Assembly (NCBI GenBank): GCA_003497135.1
Contig: DNKR01000049.1
Span: 2,516 to 52,010, forward strand
Direction: 5' to 3'
Length of the DNA stretch: 49,495 nucleotides
DNA from: Candidatus Uhrbacteria bacterium
GTDB lineage: Bacteria; Patescibacteriota; Patescibacteriia; UBA9934; UBA9568
Below are positions 5,658-39,567 of the stretch, in pieces (position 1 is the stretch's first letter; every line of letters starts with the position of its first letter). The translations under genes were made by a program, and so were the position numbers. Under the pieces are notes generated by a model. It was given only the letters and a program-made list of their open reading frames with translations. It searched no databases and had not been told where the DNA came from.

Positions 5658-5682
5658 GCGGCCTAATCGGCCGCTTTTGGTT
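5658..5682 (+). terminator. Rho-independent terminator of the atp operon
   Basis: GCGGCC-taatc-GGCCGC stem followed by TTTTGGTTTT, starting 16 nt after the atpC stop. Confidence 0.8.
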
Positions 5683-5724
5683 TTGCTTTCAAGTTGTCAA
5701 TTTTTGGGTTACAATAACAGCGCT

Positions 5725-8655
5725 ATGGATAATGATTTACTGAACAATCTGAACGAAAATCAAAAAGAAGCTGTTTTGCACAAAAACGGCCCGCTTATGA
5801 TTCTTGCTGGAGCAGGTACGGGAAAAACAACTGTTATAACAAGAAGAATCGCATGGCTTATATCAAACGGCTTTGCTAAACCAGAAGAAATTCTTGCCCT
5901 AACATTTACAGAAAAAGCAGCAGAAGAAATGGAAGAGCGGGTAGATCAACTTCTTCCAATTGGGTACATAGATATTCAGATATCGACTTTCCACTCGTTT
6001 TGCGAAAAGATTTTGCGCGATTGCGGAGCGGAGATAGGTCTTGCTTCGGATTTTAAACTTATGACCGAGCTTGGGGCATGGCTGATCACAAGACAGAATT
6101 TTGATAAATTCAAACTTGATTATTATAAGCCGATGGGCAATCCGACCAAGTTCCTAAAAGGCCTGCTAAAACATATCTCGCGAGCAAAAGACGAAAATGT
6201 TTCGCCTGATGATTATATAAAATTCGCAGAATCAATTAAAGCCGACTCTGATTCAAATAATTCTGACGAGTCAGCCACAGAGGAGTCAAAACGCATTTGC
6301 GAATTGGCTGATTTTTATCACTCATATCAGCGTATATTGCAGGAAAATGATTCTGTTGATTTTGGAGATCTTATTATGTACGCGCTACTGCTATTTAAAA
6401 AGCGGCCTAGAGTTCTTGAACAATATAGAAATAAGTTCGAGTATATTTTGGTTGATGAGTTTCAAGACACAAACTGGGCTCAATATGAGCTGATTAAAAT
6501 GCTGGCAAGTCCAAAAAATAATTTAACCGTTGTAGGTGACGATGATCAGTCCATATATAAATTTCGCGGAGCATCGCTCTCCAACATTTTGTCTTTTGAA
6601 AATGATTATAAAGACGCAAAGCGCGTTATTTTAACTGATAATTACAGAACACTGCAAAATATTTTAGACAGAGCGTATGATTTTATACAACAAAATAATC
6701 CTAACCGTCTAGAAGTCAGGGTCAAGGGCAGCGGGATTTCAAAAAAACTTGTTTCGTCAAGGCAAGGAAATGGAATCGTTGAACATATTCACGCAAAAAC
6801 AATTGATGAAGAGGCGTCCTCTGTTATAAAAAGAATGCTTGAGCTGAAAAATAAAGATGTTTCATGGGGCGATTTTTGCATTCTTGCTCGCGCTAACGAT
6901 ACTGCAATGCCGTTTATTTCCGAGCTTGAAAAAAACGGGATACCGTTTCAGTTTTTGGCGCTAAAAGGCCTGTATTCAAAACCCGTTATCATAGACTCTT
7001 TTTCAGTTTTGCGAATTGCGGATAACCCGCACGACAGCCCGTCTTTTTATAGGATATTGTGCCACAACATGTATTCATTGCCGTCAAAAGACATCGCAAC
7101 AATACTTAATGAGGCCAATAAAAAAGCGCGTTCAATCTTTGAGGTACTAGAGATTGGACAGTATTCTCTTCCGATTGAAAAATCAACGCACGAAAAAATA
7201 ACAAAAATATTAAATGACATGCGAATTGTTTCAGAATTCGCAAAAACAAAAAAAGCGTCAGAAGCATTTGTTTTGGCAACAAAGCAATTCGGCATTGTGG
7301 ATTTCGTTGCGTCGCAAGAAGATAAAGAAATTTATGAGCAGTTCCGACACCTTCAACAATTTTATGAACGAATAAAAGATTTTGAATCCCGTGCATTAGA
7401 CGCCAGTTTACACAATTTTTTACAGGAATACGCAATAGAGCTTGCATCTGGCGAGGACGGATCTGTAAAATCTGACATAACGCAAGGGCCCGATACTGTA
7501 AAAATAATGACTGTTCACGGCTCAAAAGGACTTGAATTCAAATATGTATTCGTAGTGAGCTTGATTGATCAGCGTTTTCCAAGCGTTGCAAAAACAGATG
7601 CTATTCCTTTGCCTGAGTCGCTTATTAAAGAGTGCACACAAGAGGGGAATATGCACTTGGAAGAAGAACGACGTCTATTTTATGTCGCGCTTACACGCGC
7701 GCGCGACGGTGTCTTTTTGACTTCTGCAAGCGAATACGGAGGAGCAAGAAAAAGAAAGCTTTCAAGATTTTTAACAGAACTTGGATTCAAAAGCGCCCCA
7801 AATGAGCAGGATTCAGTCGGGATATTTGAAGAGGACGAAAGCGCAACAGAAATAAAGCAGGTGTTTGAATATTCTGTTCCAAAGCATTTTAGTTTTACAC
7901 AGCTTGCCGCTTATACAAAATGTCCGCTTCAATACAAGTTTGCGCACGTGTTCCATATTCCGGTTTTTGGAAAGTTTCAAATGTCATACGGAAAATCAGT
8001 CCACTCTGTTTTTGAAAAACTGTTCAAACTGATTCTTGAGCGATCAAGCGTAAAGCAAGGTGAATTATTTTCAGGCGTTAACAGCGCATCAAATGAGATA
8101 AAAATTACCGACAAAGAATTTGACGAGATTCTAAACAGCTCATGGATTGATGAATGGTATCCGGACAGAAAAGCAAGCGAATTGTATTTTGACAAATATA
8201 AAAAAACGCTAATAAAATATTACGAATCATTAAAAGAAAACAAACCAAATACAATCGCTGTAGAAGTTCCATTTACTGTAAAGATCGGCGCTTGCGTGAT
8301 TAAGGGCCAGATAGATAGAATAGACGCGGTTGAAGGCGGGGTTGAGATTATTGACTACAAAACTGGTTCACCAAAAACAATTGACGGACTTGCAAAAGAA
8401 GACAAAAGACAGCTGTTTCTGTATCAAATTGCCGCAAGCGAAATTCTTGGGCTTAAGCCGGTAAAGTTGACATATTTTTATACTGAAGATTCTACATGTG
8501 TTTCTTTCATCGGCAAAGATAAGGATATAGATGAACTAAAAGAAACAGTCAAAGAAACAATAGCGGAAATAAAAAAATGTAAGTTCAAGGCCACTCCCGG
8601 CTTCCAGTGTCAGTTTTGCGATTTTAAAGACATCTGCGATGAACGCCAGCTATGA
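5725..8655 (+). CDS. UvrD/PcrA-family superfamily-1 helicase fused to a C-terminal PD-(D/E)XK nuclease with a Cas4/AddB-like 4-Cys cluster
   Basis: Helicase motifs: Walker A AGAGTGKTT, LVDEFQDTN, VGDDDQSIYKFRGA, TVHGSKGLEF and YVALTRAR. C-terminal nuclease: YTKCPLQYKF, GQIDRID..EIIDYKTG, QLFLYQIA and CQFCDFKDIC (C-X2-C-X5-C). ATG at 5725 is chosen over the upstream alternative start. Confidence 0.88.
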   Translation: MDNDLLNNLNENQKEAVLHKNGPLMILAGAGTGKTTVITRRIAWLISNGFAKPEEILALTFTEKAAEEMEERVDQLLPIGYIDIQISTFHSFCEKILRDCGAEIGLASDFKLMTELGAWLITRQNFDKFKLDYYKPMGNPTKFLKGLLKHISRAKDENVSPDDYIKFAESIKADSDSNNSDESATEESKRICELADFYHSYQRILQENDSVDFGDLIMYALLLFKKRPRVLEQYRNKFEYILVDEFQDTNWAQYELIKMLASPKNNLTVVGDDDQSIYKFRGASLSNILSFENDYKDAKRVILTDNYRTLQNILDRAYDFIQQNNPNRLEVRVKGSGISKKLVSSRQGNGIVEHIHAKTIDEEASSVIKRMLELKNKDVSWGDFCILARANDTAMPFISELEKNGIPFQFLALKGLYSKPVIIDSFSVLRIADNPHDSPSFYRILCHNMYSLPSKDIATILNEANKKARSIFEVLEIGQYSLPIEKSTHEKITKILNDMRIVSEFAKTKKASEAFVLATKQFGIVDFVASQEDKEIYEQFRHLQQFYERIKDFESRALDASLHNFLQEYAIELASGEDGSVKSDITQGPDTVKIMTVHGSKGLEFKYVFVVSLIDQRFPSVAKTDAIPLPESLIKECTQEGNMHLEEERRLFYVALTRARDGVFLTSASEYGGARKRKLSRFLTELGFKSAPNEQDSVGIFEEDESATEIKQVFEYSVPKHFSFTQLAAYTKCPLQYKFAHVFHIPVFGKFQMSYGKSVHSVFEKLFKLILERSSVKQGELFSGVNSASNEIKITDKEFDEILNSSWIDEWYPDRKASELYFDKYKKTLIKYYESLKENKPNTIAVEVPFTVKIGACVIKGQIDRIDAVEGGVEIIDYKTGSPKTIDGLAKEDKRQLFLYQIAASEILGLKPVKLTYFYTEDSTCVSFIGKDKDIDELKETVKETIAEIKKCKFKATPGFQCQFCDFKDICDERQL

Positions 8656-22857: not shown

Positions 22858-24666
22858 ATGAATTCATACGAACTTCGCGAAAAATTTTTAGAATTTTTCA
22901 AATCAAAAGGTCATGCGATTATTCCGTCCGCATCTGTCATACCGGAAAACGACCCTTCTGTTTTGTTTACAACAGCAGGTATGCATCCGCTCGTGCCATA
23001 TCTTTTAGGCGAAAAGCACCCGCAGGGCGTCCGTCTCGCTGATTATCAAAAGTGCGTTAGAACAGGGGACATAGACGAAGTTGGCGACAACACTCACCTT
23101 ACTTTTTTTGAAATGCTAGGCAACTGGTCGTTGGGTGATTATTTTAAAAAAGAATCCATAGAATGGAGTTTTGAATTTTTAACATCAAAAGATTGGCTTA
23201 ATGTTCCAATTGAAAATCTTGCGATAACGGTTTTTTCTGGCGACAGCGATGTGTCGCGTGATGATGAATCAGCTGGTATTTGGCTTTCATTGGGAATTCC
23301 AAAACAAAGAATCGCGTATCTTGGAAAAAACGATAATTGGTGGCCCGCTGGCGGAAAGCACACAGGACCGCAAGGACCTGATACGGAAATTTTCTATTGG
23401 ACAGGTAACGGACCCGCGCCTGAAAAATTTGATCCTGAAAACAAGAACTGGGTTGAAATATGGAACAATGTGTTTATGGAATTTGAAAAAAAGGACGATG
23501 GTTCATTAGTTCAGCTTTCTCAAAAAAATGTTGACACAGGCATGGGGCTTGAACGCGCGACAGCGGTTCTGCAAGGCAAAAAAAGCGTGTACGAAACAGA
23601 TCTGTTTGATAATATTATTTTGTCCATTGGTTCATTATCCGGAAAAAAATACGGCGCTGACGAAGCGAATGACAAGTCAATCAGAATAATCGCGGATCAT
23701 ATAAGAGCGGCAGTATTTATTCTGGGCGATAGATTCGGAGTTACGCCTTCGAATGTAGATCAGGGTTATGTTCTTAGGCGCTTGATAAGGCGTGCTGTTA
23801 GGCACTGCAGGAATATTGGAATAAACCAAAACTGTACTGTCCCAATTGCGCAAACCGTCATAGACGGCTATTGCAAGCACTATCCGGAGTTAAAAGAAAG
23901 AGAGCGGCTGATTAGCAACGAGCTTGCAAAAGAAGAGGTAAAATTCAGACAAACACTTGAGCATGGATTAAAAGAATTTGAAAAAATTATTTTAAAAACC
24001 AGTTCAATAAACGGCGAGAACGCTTTTTTGCTTTATTCAACTTATGGTTTTCCGCTTGAATTAACAGAAGAGCTTGCAAAAGAAAGGGGAATGGTAATTG
24101 ATAAAGACGCATTTTCAAATGAATTCAAAAAGCATCAAGAGCTGTCTCGCGCCGGCTCAAGCGAAAAATTCGCAGGAGGACTTGCGGACCACTCAAAAGA
24201 GACAGCTCTGCTACACAGTGCAACGCATCTTCTGCATTCAGCTCTACGCGCTGTTTTGGGCGATCATGTTGAACAAAAGGGCTCCAACATAACAAGCGAG
24301 CGATTAAGATTTGATTTTTCGCATAATGAAAAAATGTCCAAAGAACAAATAGAGCGAGTTGAAAAAATAGTTAATGATTTCATAAAAAAAGATTTGCCGG
24401 TAAAATTTGAGATACTGACGGTTGATGAAGCGAAAAAACAAGGAGCCATCGGCTTGTTTGAAGACAAGTACTCCCAAATTGGAGGCGGCGTAAAAGTTTA
24501 TTTTATAGGCAATGACGCACTTGGATATGCAAGCAAAGAAATCTGTGGCGGACCTCATGCGCAAAACCTAGGCGAACTTGGTGAATTTCGCATTATAAAA
24601 GAAGAAGCTTCAAGTGCGGGAGTGCGCAGAATAAAAGCAGTGTTGAAAAACTCAAAAATTAGCTAA
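22858..24666 (+). CDS. alaS: Alanine--tRNA ligase, minimal 602-aa form lacking the C-Ala domain
   Basis: Class II core (FTTAGMHP, FFEMLGNWSLGDYFK, WWPAGG..GPQGPDTEIFY, VDTGMGLER). Editing domain HSATHLLH ... CGGPH. The protein ends at GVRRIKAV. Confidence 0.93.
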   Translation: MNSYELREKFLEFFKSKGHAIIPSASVIPENDPSVLFTTAGMHPLVPYLLGEKHPQGVRLADYQKCVRTGDIDEVGDNTHLTFFEMLGNWSLGDYFKKESIEWSFEFLTSKDWLNVPIENLAITVFSGDSDVSRDDESAGIWLSLGIPKQRIAYLGKNDNWWPAGGKHTGPQGPDTEIFYWTGNGPAPEKFDPENKNWVEIWNNVFMEFEKKDDGSLVQLSQKNVDTGMGLERATAVLQGKKSVYETDLFDNIILSIGSLSGKKYGADEANDKSIRIIADHIRAAVFILGDRFGVTPSNVDQGYVLRRLIRRAVRHCRNIGINQNCTVPIAQTVIDGYCKHYPELKERERLISNELAKEEVKFRQTLEHGLKEFEKIILKTSSINGENAFLLYSTYGFPLELTEELAKERGMVIDKDAFSNEFKKHQELSRAGSSEKFAGGLADHSKETALLHSATHLLHSALRAVLGDHVEQKGSNITSERLRFDFSHNEKMSKEQIERVEKIVNDFIKKDLPVKFEILTVDEAKKQGAIGLFEDKYSQIGGGVKVYFIGNDALGYASKEICGGPHAQNLGELGEFRIIKEEASSAGVRRIKAVLKNSKIS

Positions 24667-32588: not shown

Positions 32589-34118
32589 ATGCGCGAGCAA
32601 TTTTTCTCAAAAACATTTTGGATTACATTATCGCTTCTTGCGGCATGGTTTGCAATAGCGGTTCTGTCTTTTTTTACAAACACTGCAACAATAGCAACAT
32701 CAGCGCTGGCAATAGCAACATTTATTATTTCTTTGCGCAAAACAGAATATGGAATTTATATTGCTTTTGCGGAATTATTTACCGGCTCGCACGGGCATGT
32801 GCTTCCTTACGCTCGCATGGCAATCTTTGCCGCAATAATGCTAGCGTGGCTTATAAAAATTATTTTCAAAAAAACGCGAATTCCTCAAAATCTGAATCTA
32901 TACATGCCCTTTTTTCTTCTCGCAACAGCTGTTGCGCTTGGGTTTGCGATTGGGCTTTTGCGCAATAACGCAAAGGACGCTTTTGACGATGCGAACGGAT
33001 TCTTTTACTTAGTTTATCTGCTCCCGATTATATCTGTAAAATGGGACGCTATCAAACAACACAATCTTTTGCAAATACTTGCGGCAAGCGCAGTCTGGAT
33101 TTCTATTTTAACCCTGATTTTAATTTACATCTTCAGCCACATGAGCGAACCAATAATGCGATCAGCTTATACTTTCGCAAGAGACACGAGGATAGGCGAA
33201 TTCACGCATATTGGAGCTGGCGTTTACAGAATTTTTATTCAGTCGCAGTTCACATCAATCGCTTTTCTGTTCATAATCACTTTGTTTTTTCTTTATAACA
33301 GTAAAATTACAGACAAAGCAAAAGAATATCTTGCGCCTTTTTCTCTTATTATTTCTTCGTTAATAGCAAGCATGTCAAGAAGCTTTGCAATCGGACTTTC
33401 TGCTGGAATAATCGCGTTTTTCGCTTTCTGCTGGCAACAGGGAAGTGTGTTTGGCGAAAATTTTACAAAAAAAATAAGCATAATTTTCTTATCGCTTGTT
33501 GCCTCATTTTTATTGCTTTTTGCCGCTGTATCAGTGCCGGTTCCGCCAGGGACAGGTTCTTTCGGCTTAATTAGAGCGCTCTCAACAAGAACTGACTCTG
33601 GTGATCTGGCTATTTCAAGCAGATGGAAATTATTACCAAGAATGAATGATGCAATATTTGAAAATCCGATTTTTGGAAGCGGGTTTGGAACAATAGTCGC
33701 ATTCCCGACAGATGACCCAAGAATACTGTCAATTTCGCCTGATGGAATGTGGAGAACATACAGATTTGAATGGGGGTGGCATGACCTATGGCTTAAAATG
33801 GGAATATTCGGCCCTATTGCAATGCTTTATTTAATTTTCTTTATCTGCAAAACAGCATTAATCAACAAAAAATCAGAAAGAGCGTGGCTTTACAGCGCGA
33901 TATTGTGCTACTCATGCGCGCTTTTAGCAATTCACATATTCAGCCCATACTTAAATCACCCGATCGGGCTTGGATTCCTCCTCTTTGCAGTTCCGTTTTT
34001 AACATTCAAAGAAAAAAATAATATACACGGCTCAAAAGTTGAAATCTTAAAAATGCCGATCAAGCAAATTAGTTTTGACGCTCCGGCTCAATTTTCACAA
34101 CAAACAAAAACTCAATAA
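32589..34118 (+). CDS. O-antigen ligase/polymerase-like (Wzy_C-type) polytopic membrane protein
   Basis: About 11 TM helices, a large periplasmic-type loop, and the SMSRSFAIG motif. It is the last gene of the polysaccharide cluster. Confidence 0.6.
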   Translation: MREQFFSKTFWITLSLLAAWFAIAVLSFFTNTATIATSALAIATFIISLRKTEYGIYIAFAELFTGSHGHVLPYARMAIFAAIMLAWLIKIIFKKTRIPQNLNLYMPFFLLATAVALGFAIGLLRNNAKDAFDDANGFFYLVYLLPIISVKWDAIKQHNLLQILAASAVWISILTLILIYIFSHMSEPIMRSAYTFARDTRIGEFTHIGAGVYRIFIQSQFTSIAFLFIITLFFLYNSKITDKAKEYLAPFSLIISSLIASMSRSFAIGLSAGIIAFFAFCWQQGSVFGENFTKKISIIFLSLVASFLLLFAAVSVPVPPGTGSFGLIRALSTRTDSGDLAISSRWKLLPRMNDAIFENPIFGSGFGTIVAFPTDDPRILSISPDGMWRTYRFEWGWHDLWLKMGIFGPIAMLYLIFFICKTALINKKSERAWLYSAILCYSCALLAIHIFSPYLNHPIGLGFLLFAVPFLTFKEKNNIHGSKVEILKMPIKQISFDAPAQFSQQTKTQ

Positions 34119-35047
34119 AAAACCGCTTTGTCTATATCAGCATAGCCATTAATAAACAAAGAAGCGTCAACCGGCTTTTTACCGCTAATTTGAATTTTTA
34201 CAATAGAAACAGCTCGGTCTTTGCAGCAGACAATTAGTTTGTTATTTATAACAGAAGCGGTTCCTATTATTCTATCACCGCATATACAATCATCATCAAT
34301 AGAAACTTCACGCATCTGAACGCGAATTTCCGTTCCGTTTCTGTTCCAAATTGTCCATGATCCGGGCCATGGTTCGTATGCGCGTATTTTTCTTTCTATT
34401 ATTTCTGCGCTTTCATCCCAGTTTATGCGTCCATCATCGCGGCTAAGCTCTTTGCAAAAAGTAGCTTTGTTGTCATCTTGCGCTTGTGCGATAATTTTAC
34501 CGGCAGCATAATCCGAAATTGAATCAACAAGAAGTTTCGGGCCGATTGATTTAATTTTTTCTTCAAGGGACGCTGATGTTTCGCTTTGATCTATCATCAA
34601 CCGTACCTGATTAAGCAGGGGGCCGTGGTCCATTTTCTTGTCCAATAGCATTATGGAAACCCCGGTTTCTTTTTCACCATTTGCTATTGCACTCATAATA
34701 GGAGAAGGTCCGCGGTACTTTGGCAAAAGCGACGGGTGCATGTTCACTGTACCGAATTTTGGAATTGACAATATTGAATCTGGAAGAATTTTTCCAAATG
34801 CGACAACACAAAAAATATCAGCTGAAATACCTTCCAGATCTTTAAGATCGTGAAACACTGGAAACCCAAGCTCAAGAGCTCTTTTTTTTACAGGCGTTTG
34901 AGCAATCTTGCTGCCGCGGCCTGCTGGTTTGTCAGACATTGTAACCGCGGCAAGCAGGTCAAATCCAGGCGACTTCGCAATCTCATCTAAAAATGGCACG
35001 GCCAAAGACGGCGAGCCAAAAAACACTGTTTTGATTTTTTCTGTCAT
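34112..35047 (-). CDS. fmt: Methionyl-tRNA formyltransferase
   Basis: VFFGSPS, GRGSK, NMHPSLLPKYRGPSPI and the C-terminal beta-barrel domain. ATG at 35047 lies 4 nt after the def stop. Confidence 0.93.
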   Translation of the reverse strand: MTEKIKTVFFGSPSLAVPFLDEIAKSPGFDLLAAVTMSDKPAGRGSKIAQTPVKKRALELGFPVFHDLKDLEGISADIFCVVAFGKILPDSILSIPKFGTVNMHPSLLPKYRGPSPIMSAIANGEKETGVSIMLLDKKMDHGPLLNQVRLMIDQSETSASLEEKIKSIGPKLLVDSISDYAAGKIIAQAQDDNKATFCKELSRDDGRINWDESAEIIERKIRAYEPWPGSWTIWNRNGTEIRVQMREVSIDDDCICGDRIIGTASVINNKLIVCCKDRAVSIVKIQISGKKPVDASLFINGYADIDKAVFY

Positions 35048-35051
35048 AGAT

Positions 35052-35525
35052 TTATAAGCGCTGATGCCTTGTGAACTTTTCAACTTTGTCTATGAATAGT
35101 ATGCCATCAAGATGATCAATTTCGTGCTGGATTATGACCGCATCAAGGCCCGAAAAAGTTTTTTTGATTTTGTTCCAGTTTTGATCCAGTGCTGAAAGTT
35201 TAATGCTCTTTGAACGCTTAACAAAACCAAAAACATTAGGAACAGACAAGCACCCCTCGTCTACTTTTATTTTTCGCATTGATCGCGAAATAATCCGCGG
35301 ATTAATGAATGCCTGAATGCAGCCGCTAAGTTCAGCAATAATAACCCTTTTTGACACCCCGACTTGCGGAGCTGCAAGACCAATTCCATCTGCTTTTTCC
35401 ATTGTTTCTTGCATGTCAAAAATAAGCTCATTAAGCTCTTTTGCGCCAATCTCGCTATCTTTAACATTAGCGGATTTTTGCCTTAAAATACTGCTTTCTA
35501 GTGTAAAAATTGACCTTATTGTCAT
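35052..35525 (-). CDS. def: Peptide deformylase
   Basis: All three motifs are present: GIGLAAPQVG, EGCLSVP and HEIDHLDG. ATG at 35525 forms an ATGA overlap with the priA stop. Confidence 0.94.
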   Translation of the reverse strand: MTIRSIFTLESSILRQKSANVKDSEIGAKELNELIFDMQETMEKADGIGLAAPQVGVSKRVIIAELSGCIQAFINPRIISRSMRKIKVDEGCLSVPNVFGFVKRSKSIKLSALDQNWNKIKKTFSGLDAVIIQHEIDHLDGILFIDKVEKFTRHQRL

Positions 35526-37333
35526 ATAACTGGATTGACTTCTATAATAACCGAATCCGGAGCTTGGCGCAAGACAGCGCATATTTCGCTGGATTTTGCC
35601 AAATCAATAAAAAACTGAAAACCGTTTTTGCATGGAATAAGATCAACACCCATCTCTCTCAAAGTTTTTTCGCACTCGCTAACAGCGCTCATGTCTTTGC
35701 TTTTAGAAGCAGAAGAAATTTTTATCTCATCAGAAAAAGGCGGAAGCATGAACCGCTTGCGTTCTTGCAGTTCATCTGCGAGAAGCTCAAGAGGGGTGTG
35801 GAGCGCTTTTTGAACCATGCCTGTCATCCATGTTTGCAAAATAACTTTTGCGCCAAGCGTCTCGCCAATACCAGCGTATTCGCGGATTCGCAAAATAGTC
35901 CTCTGGCCTGATCTGTAATCAACATCAGAAAAGCCAAGATCAGCGCATAAATCCGCAACAAGCCCGACTGATTCCGTAAATACTGAAAGATAATTTTCAA
36001 AATAATACTGAGTTGCAAGCGTTATTCTGGCTTTTCCGGGCGCTTTGCCTTTTTCAACTATTTCAACTGAATAGTCAGGGAATAAATCTTTCAATTTCGC
36101 TAAAACTTTTTTATTCCTGACGCCGAAATTCGCCAAATCAGCGCTGTTACAAACAGAACAAACCGATGAGTTTGCCCGTTCCTTTTTGCAGTTTGGGCAA
36201 ATAACCGTTTGTTCAAGCGCGACAACGGGCATTTTACAAAACACACACTGTTCAATAGCTCCGCAATCCTTGCACTTAATTCTATTGGCAACGCCTTTTA
36301 AATTGTAAAAAAGAACGACATTTTTGTTTGCATCAAGAACATTCCTGCACTCGTCTAAAAGCGCAGAGGACAAAAACGGAAATTTGTTTTGTCTTGCTTC
36401 TGTATTCAAATCAATTATTTTTGCTGTTGATTTTGTATAATATTCACAGACGCGATCAAGCCCAACAAGGTCGCCTGAAGACGGGGACGCGTCAGTAAAG
36501 ACCAAAAGTGCGTTAGCTTTTTTCGCAAGCGACTTTGCGCAATTTCGCGCGTCATATCGCGGGTTTCGGTCGCGCTGTGCGTGCTCTTGCGAGCTGGAAC
36601 GCATAACAAAAACAGCATCAAGTTTTGGCGGCAAATAAAAACAGCCTATGCGCGTTGAAACAAGACAATTAATTTTTCCGCTTCGCCAACTGTGTATAAC
36701 GCTGCATCTTGCATTTTTGGGCATACTGCCGTCTAATTTTTTATGGAGCAATCCTTTTGAAGAAAATACTTTTGAAACCACTTCAAGATCATGAAAATGC
36801 GGAACGAGGATAAGGGTATTTGCGTCTTTATCAGCTTTTTCCATCCAGTCGCAAACAAGCGACGCTGAACCTGACAAATCGTCAACAAAAGCAAATACTG
36901 ATCCTGATTTGCCCAAAACCGCAGAATCCAATTTTTTTATGTTTAAATTTTGAGCTTGCAAAACTTCTTGTTTATTGCAAAAGTCGCTATTGTTGTACAG
37001 ATTTGAAAAAGACAAATGCAACACTGAAGAAACAGACTGAAAAAGATTGCTGGCAATCTCCTCGCAAAGTTCCAGCTCTTGTTCTTTTATATAATCGCGT
37101 ATTACAGACGAAATATCTGAAAGCTTGACAATGTTAGATTCATTTTTAACACGGGCAACAACTCCGTATATATTTCTTCCATGGAAACGCACTAAAACAA
37201 GATCATTGCGCTTGACTTGCATTCCAGCAGGAACCTTATAATCAAAATACGAAAACCGCCGAGGCAGGCGAATAATCGGGTAAATCTCGGCGATTGAATT
37301 TTGAGCAATATTGCTATTTATATTTTCATTCAT
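35522..37333 (-). CDS. priA: Primosomal protein N' (PriA) homolog with degenerate ATPase motifs
   Basis: N-terminal 3'-DNA-binding-like region (RLPRRFSYFDYKVP...VLVRFHGRNIYGVV). Four CxxC pairs (CKDC..CVFC..CPNC..CSVC). priA-def-fmt synteny. The Walker A, Walker B and motif VI positions are substituted; see the findings. Confidence 0.8.
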   Translation of the reverse strand: MNENINSNIAQNSIAEIYPIIRLPRRFSYFDYKVPAGMQVKRNDLVLVRFHGRNIYGVVARVKNESNIVKLSDISSVIRDYIKEQELELCEEIASNLFQSVSSVLHLSFSNLYNNSDFCNKQEVLQAQNLNIKKLDSAVLGKSGSVFAFVDDLSGSASLVCDWMEKADKDANTLILVPHFHDLEVVSKVFSSKGLLHKKLDGSMPKNARCSVIHSWRSGKINCLVSTRIGCFYLPPKLDAVFVMRSSSQEHAQRDRNPRYDARNCAKSLAKKANALLVFTDASPSSGDLVGLDRVCEYYTKSTAKIIDLNTEARQNKFPFLSSALLDECRNVLDANKNVVLFYNLKGVANRIKCKDCGAIEQCVFCKMPVVALEQTVICPNCKKERANSSVCSVCNSADLANFGVRNKKVLAKLKDLFPDYSVEIVEKGKAPGKARITLATQYYFENYLSVFTESVGLVADLCADLGFSDVDYRSGQRTILRIREYAGIGETLGAKVILQTWMTGMVQKALHTPLELLADELQERKRFMLPPFSDEIKISSASKSKDMSAVSECEKTLREMGVDLIPCKNGFQFFIDLAKSSEICAVLRQAPDSVIIEVNPVI

Positions 37334-38121
37334 GACAGTTCAAAATTTGCGACAATATAACCGACGCCAAACGGATATTCGTACGAAAGTATTTTTGGCG
37401 TAACCGAAACACCATCAAGCGCTCCGAACAAAATCGCGAGCGATTCGTAAGAGCACTGTTTTGCCTTTTCTCTCATTCTCTTGTTCAGATTAAGAAGCCC
37501 GGCCGCATTTGTTTCTTTTATGCATTCTATAATTGTAGCGTCATACTTTGCACCCATTGCGTTAAATCCTGCAGGGGACTCGCTTGTCAAGGTATGCGCA
37601 TTGTCGCCGGATGCGATTATGGCAATTCGTTTGCTGGTTGCAAATATTTGATTTTTGAGCGCTTGTCCAAAATGAAAATGATCTTTTGCCGATAGGCGGG
37701 AAGACGAAACAGGCACAATTCTTAATTGCTCAATTCTTTGTGCAAGCAAAAGCATTGGAACAGATGCGCCATAATCAAGCTTGTCAAAAGAATCAAGCGT
37801 GATTGGAATCTTTTCGCTGCGAATAGCGCGTTGCGTTCGATCAATAAACGCAATATCAGGAAAAAATTGATTTTTGGTATTCAAATCCCCGAATTGCGAC
37901 AGATCAACAGAGTACGAATCATGAAAATTGATGGAAAAAGCGCTCTCATGCACCGGTGCATGTGATGATAAAATAATTATTGTTTCCGGCTTTGATGCAA
38001 CAAGTTCATCGCTTAGTTCTGCTAGGGCATCTATTGTTGCTTGAGCTTTTGCTGTTTTGTCTGATCCAACGCTTGAAAGCAAGAGCGGGGAATGCGGAAC
38101 AAATGAAGCGAATACGAGCAT
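37330..38121 (-). CDS. Class III extradiol dioxygenase subunit B / Memo-like family protein
   Basis: N-terminus FVPHSPLLL, ILSSHAP, and IIASGDNAH (the LigB/DODA-type His motif). Family recalled from memory. ATG at 38121 is preferred to the TTG at 38130. Confidence 0.55.
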   Translation of the reverse strand: MLVFASFVPHSPLLLSSVGSDKTAKAQATIDALAELSDELVASKPETIIILSSHAPVHESAFSINFHDSYSVDLSQFGDLNTKNQFFPDIAFIDRTQRAIRSEKIPITLDSFDKLDYGASVPMLLLAQRIEQLRIVPVSSSRLSAKDHFHFGQALKNQIFATSKRIAIIASGDNAHTLTSESPAGFNAMGAKYDATIIECIKETNAAGLLNLNKRMREKAKQCSYESLAILFGALDGVSVTPKILSYEYPFGVGYIVANFELS

Positions 38122-38136
38122 AATATTCAATTAAAT

Positions 38137-39567
38137 TTATTGTTTGCTAGTTGTTGAAACAGAAACAGTTTCTGTGTCTGATCCGGATAGCACAAATCCT
38201 GCTTGATTTATTATATCGCCTGTTTCATGCGCTAAAATTGTTTTTGGGTCAACAGAAACAACATTTTCCCAACGCAAGCCATACGATTCAAAAGCACTGC
38301 CGGAAACAACTGGTCTTAATTTACCGTCTGAAACAATATAAACAGAAGGCGAGCTAGAGGACTTAACAAGCAAGCCGTCTCTTAGTTTAACAATATCGCC
38401 TCGCGCATATTGTTCCAGTTCAGCAGGCGATTTTTTAACAATGCTTCTTGCGTCAAAATTAAGATCGAGAATATCGCGTGTAGTTATCGGGTGCTTGACG
38501 CCGTCTCTTACAAACCATACTCCGCCCGTTGAAGAGTCCTGAATTAGCGATCCAACAGGGGATTGAGACAAAGATGTTATTGGATCCCCGGCAACATAGC
38601 CGTCCAAATCTCCGAGATTAACTTCAAGCACTTCGTCCATAGAAAAACCAATTGATCTGAATGCCTCCATGTCAACAATGTGGCGTTTTGCATCATCAAC
38701 AATCAAATATATTGCGCCGCTCGGATCGCGAAGCAGGGAATAATTTTGGAATTTTATTTTCTGGCCATCTGGATAAGCGTTGATTGAAGTATCATCTGCT
38801 TGAACAATCAGATCAGGGTTAAAACGCGACAAAAGAACTGACTTGGAAGTTATCAAGCGCTTTAAGCCGTGCTCAATAAGATAAACCGCGCCGTTTGTTT
38901 TGCTTTGAAGCAAAATGCCGTTTGGAAACATTGGCGCAAACCATGTTGTCCAAATGCGCGCAAAATTTTCGTTTCCGTGCAAGTGCGGAGTGTAGCTGTA
39001 AAGCGAAGCTGTTGCTTTGTTTGCAGGCGCAACAGCAACGCCGTCTATGATAGATGTTTTTCCGGGCGCGAAACCGGCGGTTGTAACGCCGATAATTTCC
39101 AAATCTTTAAAATATCCATCGCGAAATTGCATTGCCGCTGAATTAACTTGTTTAGGAAACCCCTTCCAGCGCTGAATTGACGGTTCGTCATGCGAACAGT
39201 CGTCGCACACCGCATAGCCAGTCGCCCAATCAAGCTGGTCCTGCGACGGACTATCGTCATCAATCAAGCTCTGTTCTTTTTGCAAAAGAACAATCAAAAC
39301 TTTTGGATTGATTACCCATCTTTGCGCTGCTCTCCAGATAATTTCTGCGGAACTGCGCACAGCGCCGTCTATGTCTGTGAATTTTGCATTTGCAAGCGAT
39401 CCGGACAACAGTAATTGCTGGATTCCATTCAGGTCAAGGTCGCTCGCATTTGCAAACTCGCTGTCAGAAACAATAAAATTAGGCGTAAACGAAAACGCGT
39501 TCGCGTTAAGCGGAAAAAATGCTAATTGGCCTGCTATTATCAAAACAAAAATCAGAAATTTATTCAT
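38137..39567 (-). CDS. Secreted protein with an N-terminal globular domain and four tandem ~58-aa repeats
   Basis: Signal peptide MNKFLIFVLIIAGQLAFFPLNANA. Repeats centre on GAVYLIEHGLKRLI, GAIYLIVDDAKRHI, GGVWFVRDGVKHPI and PSVYIVSDGKLRPV (aa ~215-453, nt 38209-38925). Confidence 0.8.
   Translation of the reverse strand: MNKFLIFVLIIAGQLAFFPLNANAFSFTPNFIVSDSEFANASDLDLNGIQQLLLSGSLANAKFTDIDGAVRSSAEIIWRAAQRWVINPKVLIVLLQKEQSLIDDDSPSQDQLDWATGYAVCDDCSHDEPSIQRWKGFPKQVNSAAMQFRDGYFKDLEIIGVTTAGFAPGKTSIIDGVAVAPANKATASLYSYTPHLHGNENFARIWTTWFAPMFPNGILLQSKTNGAVYLIEHGLKRLITSKSVLLSRFNPDLIVQADDTSINAYPDGQKIKFQNYSLLRDPSGAIYLIVDDAKRHIVDMEAFRSIGFSMDEVLEVNLGDLDGYVAGDPITSLSQSPVGSLIQDSSTGGVWFVRDGVKHPITTRDILDLNFDARSIVKKSPAELEQYARGDIVKLRDGLLVKSSSSPSVYIVSDGKLRPVVSGSAFESYGLRWENVVSVDPKTILAHETGDIINQAGFVLSGSDTETVSVSTTSKQ

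Follow-up and report, generated by a model that had tools for sequence, protein, structure and literature searches.

Can a PriA protein that has lost its whole ATP site still serve replication and, if so, in what capacity? The question is raised by a gene of a Candidatus Uhrbacteria bacterium located, in the window analysed here (the whole stretch of 49,495 nucleotides), immediately upstream of def and fmt. This gene and its neighbours are:

37330-38121, minus strand: LigB / AmmeMemoRadiSam-B-like gene (profile matches), syntenic in Uhrbacteria loci, whose stop overlaps the priA start (ATGA)
35522-37333, minus strand: priA-like gene, 603 aa, PriA orthologue without any ATPase motif (pseudohelicase), identified from the ORF list, PriA homology, the AF2 model and Foldseek
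35052-35525, minus strand: def, peptide deformylase (profile matches), whose start overlaps the priA stop (ATGA)
34112-35047, minus strand: fmt, methionyl-tRNA formyltransferase (profile matches), next after def

The overlap of the LigB-like gene, upstream, with priA corresponds to positions 37330-37333 and that of priA with def to positions 35522-35525. In Uhrbacteria the conserved order is clpB, a gene for a 476-aa protein, the LigB-like gene, priA, def and fmt. With a genomic scope of ca. 50 kb for this genome and of 6 kb on either side of related loci, def and fmt were found directly downstream of priA here and in most of 80 related loci, including those with a canonical PriA; indeed, the canonical PriAs of neighbouring CPR lineages occur in the same priA-def-fmt context. 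Two plus-strand ORFs lie antisense inside the priA-like gene (35510-35911 and 36820-37128) and were set aside because the minus-strand frame accounts for the conservation. Scans for Rfam families, tRNAs, promoters and terminators yielded no specific result; promoter-like and terminator-like sites occur at the rate expected by chance, except that clpB is preceded by a good -35/-10 match.

Assignment of the product to PriA rests on several lines of evidence. The Pfam model PF17764 (PriA_3primeBD) matches aa 27-107 (5.8e-11, 42.5 bits for a cut-off of 22.7), while the protein scores below the full-length NCBI models, with 125.6 bits for TIGR00595 priA (NCBIfam; cut-off 230.35) and 126.9 bits for NF004066 (cut-off 813), and hence does not qualify as an equivalog of the PRK05580/TIGR00595 type; its close relatives carry the NCBI name "hypothetical protein". 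A phmmer comparison with PriA crystal and cryo-EM chains gave an E-value of about 4e-18, and hhalign aligned the family profile with the canonical PriA profile over 607 columns at a probability of 100% (E 8.8e-96). The AF2 model is of high confidence (pLDDT 91.4, pTM 0.90) and its first nine Foldseek matches in the PDB are all PriA (E 1e-33 to 5e-27, TM 0.63-0.71), the best being 8fak_H, 4nl4 and 6dcr (E about 1e-33, TM ~0.70) and the next protein Mfd (1e-11). Model and structural matches both reveal an SF2 core of two RecA-like lobes with the PriA-specific topology, and the domains follow the order known from canonical PriA (E. coli, K. pneumoniae; 4NL4, 6DGD, 8FAK; TIGR00595), namely 3' DNA-binding domain (3'BD), two RecA lobes, Cys-rich region and C-terminal domain (CTD):

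37007-37297, minus strand: 3'BD, aa 13-109, with the F30-D31-Y32 pocket (PF17764, conservation)
36902-37006, minus strand: short linker, aa 110-144, replacing the winged-helix (WH) domain and holding the chance tripeptide GKS141-143 and the lost Q motif (alignment, AF2)
36404-36901, minus strand: RecA-like lobe 1, aa 145-310, catalytically stripped (AF2 secondary structure; aligned to E. coli 219-412)
35714-36403, minus strand: RecA-like lobe 2, aa 311-540, with the Cys-rich insertion and the DNA-contact motifs N344..G347 and T441 kept (alignments, AF2)
35525-35713, minus strand: CTD, aa 541-603 (AF2, alignment), 63 aa for 92 in E. coli

The protein nevertheless differs from canonical PriA in having no ATP-binding or hydrolysis residues, no WH, and a shorter lobe 2 and CTD. 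The region of WH and linker counts 30 aa here versus 114 aa in E. coli, contains no winged helix, and coincides with a drop of pLDDT at aa 110-144. Since the linker is similarly short in the motif-intact, canonical PriAs of the CPR, the missing WH is a trait of the CPR and was discarded as part of the pseudohelicase syndrome. In lacking a WH naturally, the protein resembles 6DCR, a WH-deletion PriA of E. coli that was, in contrast, made by engineering and whose ATPase core is active; the structural match (TMq 0.71, TMt 0.68-0.70) is about as good as that to any PriA. The CTD is poorly conserved as well as shortened, so that SSB binding may differ. A Pfam Helicase_C match was also obtained at aa 160-230 but, because of its position on lobe 1, is read as a cross-match between homologous RecA-like lobes.

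In the ATP site, the following remnants were recognised:

36860-36886, minus strand: Walker A remnant, aa 150-158, V-D-D-L-S-G-S-A-S, with no Lys (alignments, AF2)
36593-36616, minus strand: Walker B remnant, aa 240-247, A-V-F-V-M-R-S-S (hhalign, phmmer to 4nl4, MAFFT)
36485-36493, minus strand: motif III remnant, D281-A282-S283 in place of S356-A357-T358 (SAT) (alignments)
35858-35881, minus strand: motif VI remnant, aa 485-492, E-Y-A-G-I-G-E-T (alignments)

Motifs Q, I (GxGKT), II (DEEH), III (SAT) and VI (GRxGR) are thus all absent. The loop between beta-1 and alpha-1, which forms the P-loop, is reduced to about two residues (D151-D152), and hhalign places G229/K230/T231 on G155/S156/A157; MAFFT differs by one residue at the K230 site, where no alignment puts a Lys or Arg. 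The sequence-only reading of this DNA had described a lost Walker A motif with Ala at the site of the lysine, of which the loss stands but the register was one residue off, in the direction opposite to that of MAFFT, K230 corresponding to S156 in hhalign. It had likewise taken SQEH (248-251) for the DEEH box. The acidic pair is indeed lost, but D320-E321-E322-H323 align four residues away with M244-R245-S246-S247, and the SQEH register is rejected by phmmer, MAFFT and hhalign alike, which pair H251 with Y327 of the S-Y-K-Q that follows DEEH. Its readings of SAT as D-A-S and of motif VI as devoid of arginines hold in the hhalign alignment, with I489 and T492 facing the arginine fingers R584 and R587; in the Q motif, Q203 faces D136 (hhalign). 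The pattern [AG]xxxxGK[ST] occurs nowhere in the 603-aa protein but is kept by the other P-loop proteins of the window (AtpA, AtpD, a UvrD-like helicase, Era and ClpB) which, together with the same losses in relatives, indicates that the motif loss is not due to chance.

Elements that contact DNA or zinc have had a different fate. In addition to the 3'BD, two further features are retained:

36542-36574, minus strand: aromatic-rich loop (ARL), aa 254-264, R-D-R-N-P-R-Y-D-A-R-N, a fork-junction DNA contact (conservation; role from PMC5175346)
36149-36274, minus strand: Cys-rich zinc-binding region, aa 354-395, four CxxC pairs inserted in lobe 2 (conservation)

The 3'BD is the domain best conserved relative to canonical PriA (ratio 0.73) and the least relaxed, with F30-D31-Y32 aligning with E. 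coli F16-D17-Y18 and conserved at 90% or more in a 60-sequence family alignment. Within the ARL, the PRYDAR segment (aa 258-263) has P258, R259, D261 and R263 at 100% in the 44 pseudo-type sequences of the GTDB-derived set and at 90% or more in the 60-sequence alignment, in which only P258 is invariant. The eight cysteines (C354/357/363/366/379/382/392/395) are invariant in 60 relatives and align with E. coli C436...C479, with a spacing of 3-6-3-13-3-10-3 versus 3-6-3-15-3-10-3. The 3'-end pocket residues, the ARL and the zinc cysteines are therefore those of canonical PriA, in agreement with the sequence-only reading that had found the 3'BD, PRYDAR and four CxxC pairs intact. Other DNA-contact elements kept along with PRYDAR are the motif Ia Pro, the motif Ib Thr-Arg, the NxxG motif and the motif V Thr; among the 44 pseudo-type sequences, the equivalents of P253, T303, R304 and T539 are retained in 93%, 90%, 84% and 95%, respectively.

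Comparison with related loci indicates that this situation is not peculiar to one genome. A pseudo-type set of 44 sequences (40 from GTDB genomes, the query and three database proteins) was aligned by MAFFT and compared with a canonical set of 43 (38 CPR loci and five non-CPR controls). Every sequence of the latter (100%) has G229, K230, T231, D320, E321, R584 and R587; none of these residues is kept as a motif in the former, which is of the Uhrbacteria/Falkowbacteria type and entirely without GxGK[TS]. The K230 equivalent is Arg in 63% of the pseudo-type set. GxGK[TS] was also found in none of the best 151 non-control database cluster representatives, nor in an additional group of the Falkowbacteria type, and neighbouring CPR lineages have the canonical motifs. 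Judged from these sequences, loss of the ATP site is a trait of a large clade of the CPR/Patescibacteria, with considerably more than a hundred lineages of these ultra-small bacteria sharing it.

The pseudo-type proteins are under purifying selection, with dN/dS values of 0.037-0.10 for close pairs of relatives. Their evolution is also accelerated: median pairwise identities for PriA, Def and Fmt are 33.7, 51.4 and 50.3% in the pseudo clade versus 58.2, 62.6 and 56.1% in CPR bacteria with canonical PriA. In a neighbour-joining tree the pseudo clade falls inside the CPR PriAs, with which it shares PRYDAR, absence of the WH and priA-def-fmt synteny, and it probably arose separately from the ATPase-less PriA of Deinococcus-Thermus.

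That protein is the closest known parallel. D. radiodurans PriA shows neither ATPase nor helicase activity, yet it does bind to ssDNA, to forked DNA and to DnaB (Lopper, Boone & Morrow 2015, PMC4504706), and Deinococcus PriA matches motifs I and II poorly (PMC4504706). It is, like the protein described here, a natural, genome-retained and conserved PriA-like protein whose Walker A and B boxes are degenerate, the former without its catalytic Lys and the latter without its acidic residues; the Arg reported at the K230 site in Deinococcus-Thermus is moreover the residue most of the CPR set carries there. The two differ in lineage and in that the Deinococcus protein has been characterised biochemically while the CPR proteins are known here from their sequences. 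Taking Deinococcus PriA as described in that paper, the CPR protein is the more degenerate, with the P-loop deleted and motifs Q and III and the motif VI arginines gone. A second model is provided by E. coli PriA with K230R (priA300), K230A or K230D, which is without ATPase, helicase and translocase activity and still assembles primosomes and supports PriA-PriB restart (PMC5778457). These mutants are defective in the PriA-PriC pathway (PMC5778457), which implies that helicase activity matters in E. coli. Each of them, moreover, was engineered to carry one substitution in a motor that is otherwise intact, in contrast to the natural, long-fixed and multiple degeneration seen in the CPR.

Taken together, these data make it likely that the gene is a PriA orthologue turned pseudohelicase, acting as an ATP-independent adaptor for fork recognition. 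By analogy with priA300 (K230R) and D. radiodurans PriA, the protein would be devoid of ATPase activity, and the same two precedents suggest that it would bind forks and recruit DnaB. An abandoned replication fork would be recognised statically, with the 3'BD holding the 3' end of the nascent leading strand while the lobes and Cys-rich region grip the junction and the template of the lagging strand. DnaB would then be recruited to the protein as to a docking platform, directly or via a lineage-specific adaptor, and no ATP-driven motor would unwind the lagging arm. The Cys-rich region is the docking site of PriB, and PriA, once bound to a fork, is remodelled into a pore that surrounds the lagging strand (PMC10175261).

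The sequence-only reading had already proposed a helicase-dead PriA that still functions as a scaffold, a proposal with which all computational tests (motifs, fold, synteny and dN/dS) agree, and had suggested as checks a profile alignment, an ortholog survey and an AlphaFold model. The first confirmed the motif losses, the second found like losses in the 44 related sequences and 151 cluster representatives, and the third returned a confident PriA fold. It had missed both the experimental precedent in Deinococcus and the clade-wide spread.

Three other explanations were weighed. The first, that the protein is a PriA derivative repurposed outside replication restart, for instance as a structure-specific DNA-binding factor or with a site for a new partner or ligand, other proteins ensuring restart, would fit its fast evolution relative to Def and Fmt, the shortened and divergent CTD and the failure of NCBI models to recognise it as PriA. 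It would also fit the fairly conserved new sequence at the former ATP site (D-L-R-R and R-S-G-x-x-N-H-K-Q), which suggests that the former pocket may have a role beyond that of an adaptor. We nonetheless regard repurposing as unlikely, since the gene occupies the exact priA slot upstream of def-fmt like canonical CPR PriAs, the fork-recognition elements (3'BD pocket, ARL and Cys-rich region) are its best conserved parts, and both PriA types occur together in no genome of a pattern-limited scan.

Far less probable is an active ATPase or helicase with a non-canonical nucleotide site, using K142 of the GKS tripeptide at aa 141-143 or residues of a partner in trans, even though literature cited in PMC5778457 discusses whether E. 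coli PriA has a further nucleotide site, weaker than the first. A hydrophobic-DE Walker B, the motif VI arginines and the Q-motif Gln are all absent, and simultaneous loss of five motifs is incompatible with RecA-type catalysis. A P-loop comes after strand beta-1. The GKS, which the sequence-only reading had flagged as a caveat and which is present, although as LGKSGS at aa 140-145 and not 141-146, lies N-terminal to beta-1 (145-150) in the AF2 model and so has the wrong topology; only 6 of 60 relatives have a Lys at the site of K142, and the position and lack of conservation of this residue together rule it out as a cryptic P-loop lysine. An alignment placing K142 in the P-loop, or an acidic pair in Walker B, had been named in advance as evidence against a dead ATPase; neither emerged, the profile alignment setting DEEH on M-R-S-S.

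Finally, a decaying pseudogene or assembly artefact without function, which the missing catalytic motifs, low HMM scores and relatives only 25-33% identical might evoke, is scarcely credible and is effectively refuted by the conservation data: an uninterrupted 603-codon ORF with ATGA coupling on both sides (the sequence-only reading had cited ATGA coupling in a priA-def-fmt operon as a reason not to see an obvious pseudogene), orthologues that are intact and comparable in length across dozens of species-level genomes, dN/dS of 0.04-0.10, the eight invariant cysteines and the high-confidence predicted fold.

Beyond the adaptor explanation, it may tentatively be speculated, with more doubt than confidence, that across large parts of the CPR (lineages of the Uhrbacteria type, the Falkowbacteria type and others) PriA became independent of ATP, on two or more separate occasions, and that the emptied pocket, with its own conserved sequence, became a new interaction site, yielding an adaptor that loads DnaB directly and without a motor. 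If true, this would represent a minimal system for restart, or even for helicase loading in general, among ultra-small symbiotic bacteria with no PriB, DnaT or DnaD.

No description of an ATPase-less PriA was found in the literature on PriA in Patescibacteria, the candidate phyla radiation, Parcubacteria and Actinobacteria. An ATPase-dead PriA has so far been described only in Deinococcus, to which the CPR adds a second, much larger and more extreme exception. Surveys based on curated PriA models will call PriA absent or "hypothetical" in these lineages. The compact proteins of ca. 600 aa, with neither WH nor motor, could be of use for dissecting the hand-over of DnaB from PriA to the fork without PriB, DnaT or DnaD. 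Overall, a whole section of the CPR has erased the ATP site of PriA completely and yet maintains the protein by purifying selection, a natural experiment which argues that the indispensable core of PriA is fork recognition and partner docking, and not unwinding.

The PriA homologue and the other loci discussed here are located in the window as follows:

35522..37333, minus strand: priA ORF, 603 codons, uninterrupted
36860-36886, within priA: former Walker A segment, aa 150-158 (same columns in alignment A3)
36581-36616, within priA: former Walker B segment, aa 240-251 (same columns in alignment A3)
37330-38121, minus strand: LigB/AmmeMemoRadiSam-system-B-like gene (class III extradiol dioxygenase fold), ATGA-coupled to priA
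38137-39567, minus strand: 476-aa protein gene; hydrophobic, signal-like segment at the N-terminus of the product; no Pfam family on record
22858-24666, plus strand: alanyl-tRNA synthetase, 602 aa, with catalytic and second-additional (SAD) domains
5677-8655, plus strand: UvrD/PcrA-type SF1 helicase fused to a C-terminal PD-(D/E)XK nuclease (AddA-like), 992 aa

Pfam detected the PriA 3' DNA-binding domain (3'BD; 5.8e-11) in the 603-aa product but no DEAD/ResIII helicase domain, and no Pfam model matched lobe 2. Helicase_C, usually a marker of RecA lobe 2, gives a weak match to lobe 1 (4.2e-7; aa 160-230, window 36644-36856), probably as a cross-match of homologous RecA folds after erasure of the diagnostic motifs. 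NCBIfam PriA models match at ca. 1e-36, far under their cut-offs (125.6 bits versus 230.35 for TIGR00595), and a phmmer search of the PDB returned PriA chains only (ca. 4e-18). When a family profile of 60 sequences was compared with a canonical PriA profile (25 sequences, E. coli first), the two aligned over 607 columns with a probability of 100% and an E-value of 8.8e-96. The top Foldseek matches to the AlphaFold2 model built from the family alignment (pLDDT 91.4, pTM 0.90) were all PriA (8FAK, 4NL4, 6DGD, 4NL8 and 6DCR; E ca. 1e-33, TM ca. 0.70), the next family being Mfd at 1e-11. Of these, 6DCR is an E. coli construct deleted for the winged-helix domain, whose absence is a general feature of the CPR, unlinked to motor loss. 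By its fold, order of domains, zinc site, 3'BD and place in the genome, the protein qualifies as a PriA; it lacks the catalytic motifs and curated HMM scores of a PriA helicase in the strict sense.

In SF2 helicases, contacts with nucleic acid come from motifs Ia, Ib, IV and V, NTP binding and hydrolysis depend on motifs Q, I, II and VI, and motif III couples both activities. Equivalences drawn from the profile-profile alignment (E. coli residue first) indicate that Q203 of the Q motif corresponds to D136, G229-K230-T231 of Walker A to G155-S156-A157, D320-E321-E322-H323 of Walker B to M244-R245-S246-S247, S356-A357-T358 of motif III to D281-A282-S283, and R584 and R587 of motif VI to I489 and T492. 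The sequence-only reading had proposed by eye that the Walker A lysine and the motif VI arginines were lost and that motif III read DAS, all of which is borne out; its conclusion that the Walker B acidic pair is lost also stands, but the SQEH it took for the DEEH box does not, since H251 corresponds to Y327, a residue of the S-Y-K-Q segment downstream of DEEH. MAFFT alignments place the P-loop within one residue of the profile-profile alignment and, in the model, beta-1 (145-150) and alpha-1 (153-166) are joined by D151-D152 alone, so that the eight-residue P-loop is essentially deleted. The pattern [AG]xxxxGK[ST] has no match in this PriA and is matched by AtpA, AtpD, the UvrD-like helicase, Era and both ClpB modules of the same window, which served as internal control. 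The GKS tripeptide at 141-143 was discarded as a P-loop: it precedes beta-1 in the model and therefore lies on the wrong side, and K142 is a lysine in only 6 of 60 relatives.

Other elements of the protein are retained, as had been proposed for the 3'BD, the PRYDAR segment and the zinc cysteines. Conservation in the 60-sequence alignment is complete or reaches at least 90% for F30-D31-Y32 of the 3'BD (E. coli F16-D17-Y18), P178 (motif Ia), T227 (motif Ib), N257-P258-R259-x-D261-x-R263 of the aromatic-rich loop (ARL), N344 to G347, all eight cysteines of the Cys-rich region, T441 (motif V), D465, Q500, R525 and P531-P532; R228, beside T227, is 84% conserved in the set lacking the ATPase motifs (hereafter pseudo-PriAs). 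With the SF2 motif roles, this pattern amounts to a clean split in which the DNA contacts are retained and the motor is removed. In E. coli PriA, the ARL cross-links to the fork junction (PMC5175346). The residues replacing the ATP site are themselves conserved in the pseudo-PriA family, as D-L-R-R and R-S-G-x-x-N-H-K-Q or, more fully, [PS]-D-L-R-R-x-A-A and x-R-S-G-x-x-N-H-K-Q; they may fill the emptied pocket structurally, for instance through salt bridges, or form a new binding site.

A scan across GTDB, with each species represented by one genome, yielded 80 loci. The best matches came from Candidatus Uhrbacteria and Patescibacteria MAGs (22-34% identical over their best aligned segment), all without Walker A, Walker B, motif III and motif VI; the loss is a trait of the clade. 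Moranbacteria and Parcubacteria PriAs from the same scan have intact GPxGSGKT, DEEQ, SAT and GRxxR. In Falkowbacteria (loci L040, L055, L071 and L079), Walker A and motif VI are gone and DEEQ is retained; in L051 (Moraniibacteriota), Walker A and Walker B are gone. These five loci and the database protein P0163 represent intermediate or separate PriA decay in other CPR lineages. Among 1.84 billion cluster representatives, searched exhaustively with HMMER, there were 17,367 PriA-like matches; GxGK[TS] is absent from all of the 151 best non-control representatives (including P0003 from the first search), and 133 of these are without DE and RxxR as well. Starting a second search from the non-Uhrbacteria subgroup added ca. 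45 such proteins, some named "primosomal protein N' [Candidatus Falkowbacteria]".

In the NJ tree, the Uhrbacteria-type clade forms one group, and Falkowbacteria and L051 group with the canonical Moranbacteria clade. The motor may accordingly have been lost at least twice in the CPR, a tentative count because NJ is weak on fast-evolving sequences; overall, the data suggest repeated PriA motor loss within this radiation.

The gene is under selection and not decaying as a pseudogene: the ORF is intact and, as the sequence-only reading held, sits in a conserved, ATGA-coupled priA-def-fmt operon, and dN/dS in close pairs is low (0.037, 0.101, 0.057 and 0.099). The priA stop and the start of def (peptide deformylase) share ATGA, as do the stop of the LigB-like gene and the priA start, and fmt (methionyl-tRNA formyltransferase) comes next after def. 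The minus-strand order clpB, 476-aa secreted protein gene, LigB-like gene, priA, def and fmt is kept across Uhrbacteria, and priA-def-fmt also surrounds canonical CPR PriAs, which makes the pseudo form a positional orthologue. The pseudo-PriA family is faster-evolving than its neighbour genes, with median pairwise identities for PriA/Def/Fmt of 33.7/51.4/50.3% in the pseudo clade versus 58.2/62.6/56.1% for canonical CPR PriAs; of all domains, the 3'BD shows the weakest relaxation (ratio 0.73, with the lobes and C-terminal domain at ca. 0.5).

The gene content of the window is CPR-typical (F-type ATP synthase, MreBC, PBP2, MurJ, RNase J, Era, a ribosomal protein cluster and many glycosyltransferases). 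In the window scan, the sole strong promoter-like match lies upstream of clpB, remaining promoter-like and terminator-like sites are as frequent as chance predicts, and no tRNA gene or Rfam family at gathering threshold was found in the whole 49.5 kb (1-49495). The LigB-like gene, an odd partner for a replication gene, keeps its position beside priA across the clade, and the 476-aa protein shows 38-51% identity and synteny (clpB, 476-aa gene, LigB-like gene, priA) across Uhrbacteria and Falkowbacteria loci. The alanyl-tRNA synthetase appears truncated at its C-terminus, no Pfam domain being found beyond SAD. The UvrD/PcrA-type helicase-nuclease, whose Walker A is intact and which has a hydrophobic-DE box, looks active from its sequence and shares genome and window with the motor-less PriA.

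Natural PriA pseudohelicases are an established kind of protein in Deinococcus-Thermus, where the D. radiodurans PriA, its Walker boxes degenerate, shows neither ATPase nor helicase activity and still binds ssDNA, forks and DnaB (PMC4504706). A 2017 review names Deinococcus as the sole exception (PMC5778457), and no CPR PriA pseudohelicase was found described in the literature searched. The CPR proteins, known here from sequence and model, are of the same kind but belong to another lineage, are more completely degenerate than the published description of the Deinococcus protein, and probably arose independently. In E. coli, K230R/A/D PriA lacks ATPase, helicase and translocase activities and still sustains the PriA-PriB pathway as well as primosome assembly (PMC5778457). 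Cryo-EM of PriA/PriB/fork complexes shows that PriA, on binding the fork, is remodelled into a pore that surrounds the lagging-strand ssDNA, with the Cys-rich region exposed for PriB to dock on (PMC10175261). Together, these precedents suggest that the pseudo-PriA would grip an abandoned fork via the 3'BD, ARL, lobes and Cys-rich region, and would then act as a static platform for DnaB recruitment, leaving the lagging arm not unwound; unwinding, if needed, would have to come from another helicase.

Since their scores fall under the curated PriA model cut-offs, Uhrbacteria-type pseudo-PriAs (P0003 and P0036, from Uhrbacteria/Patescibacteria MAG records) are named "hypothetical protein" at NCBI, and surveys of gene content would count Uhrbacteria-type genomes as lacking PriA.
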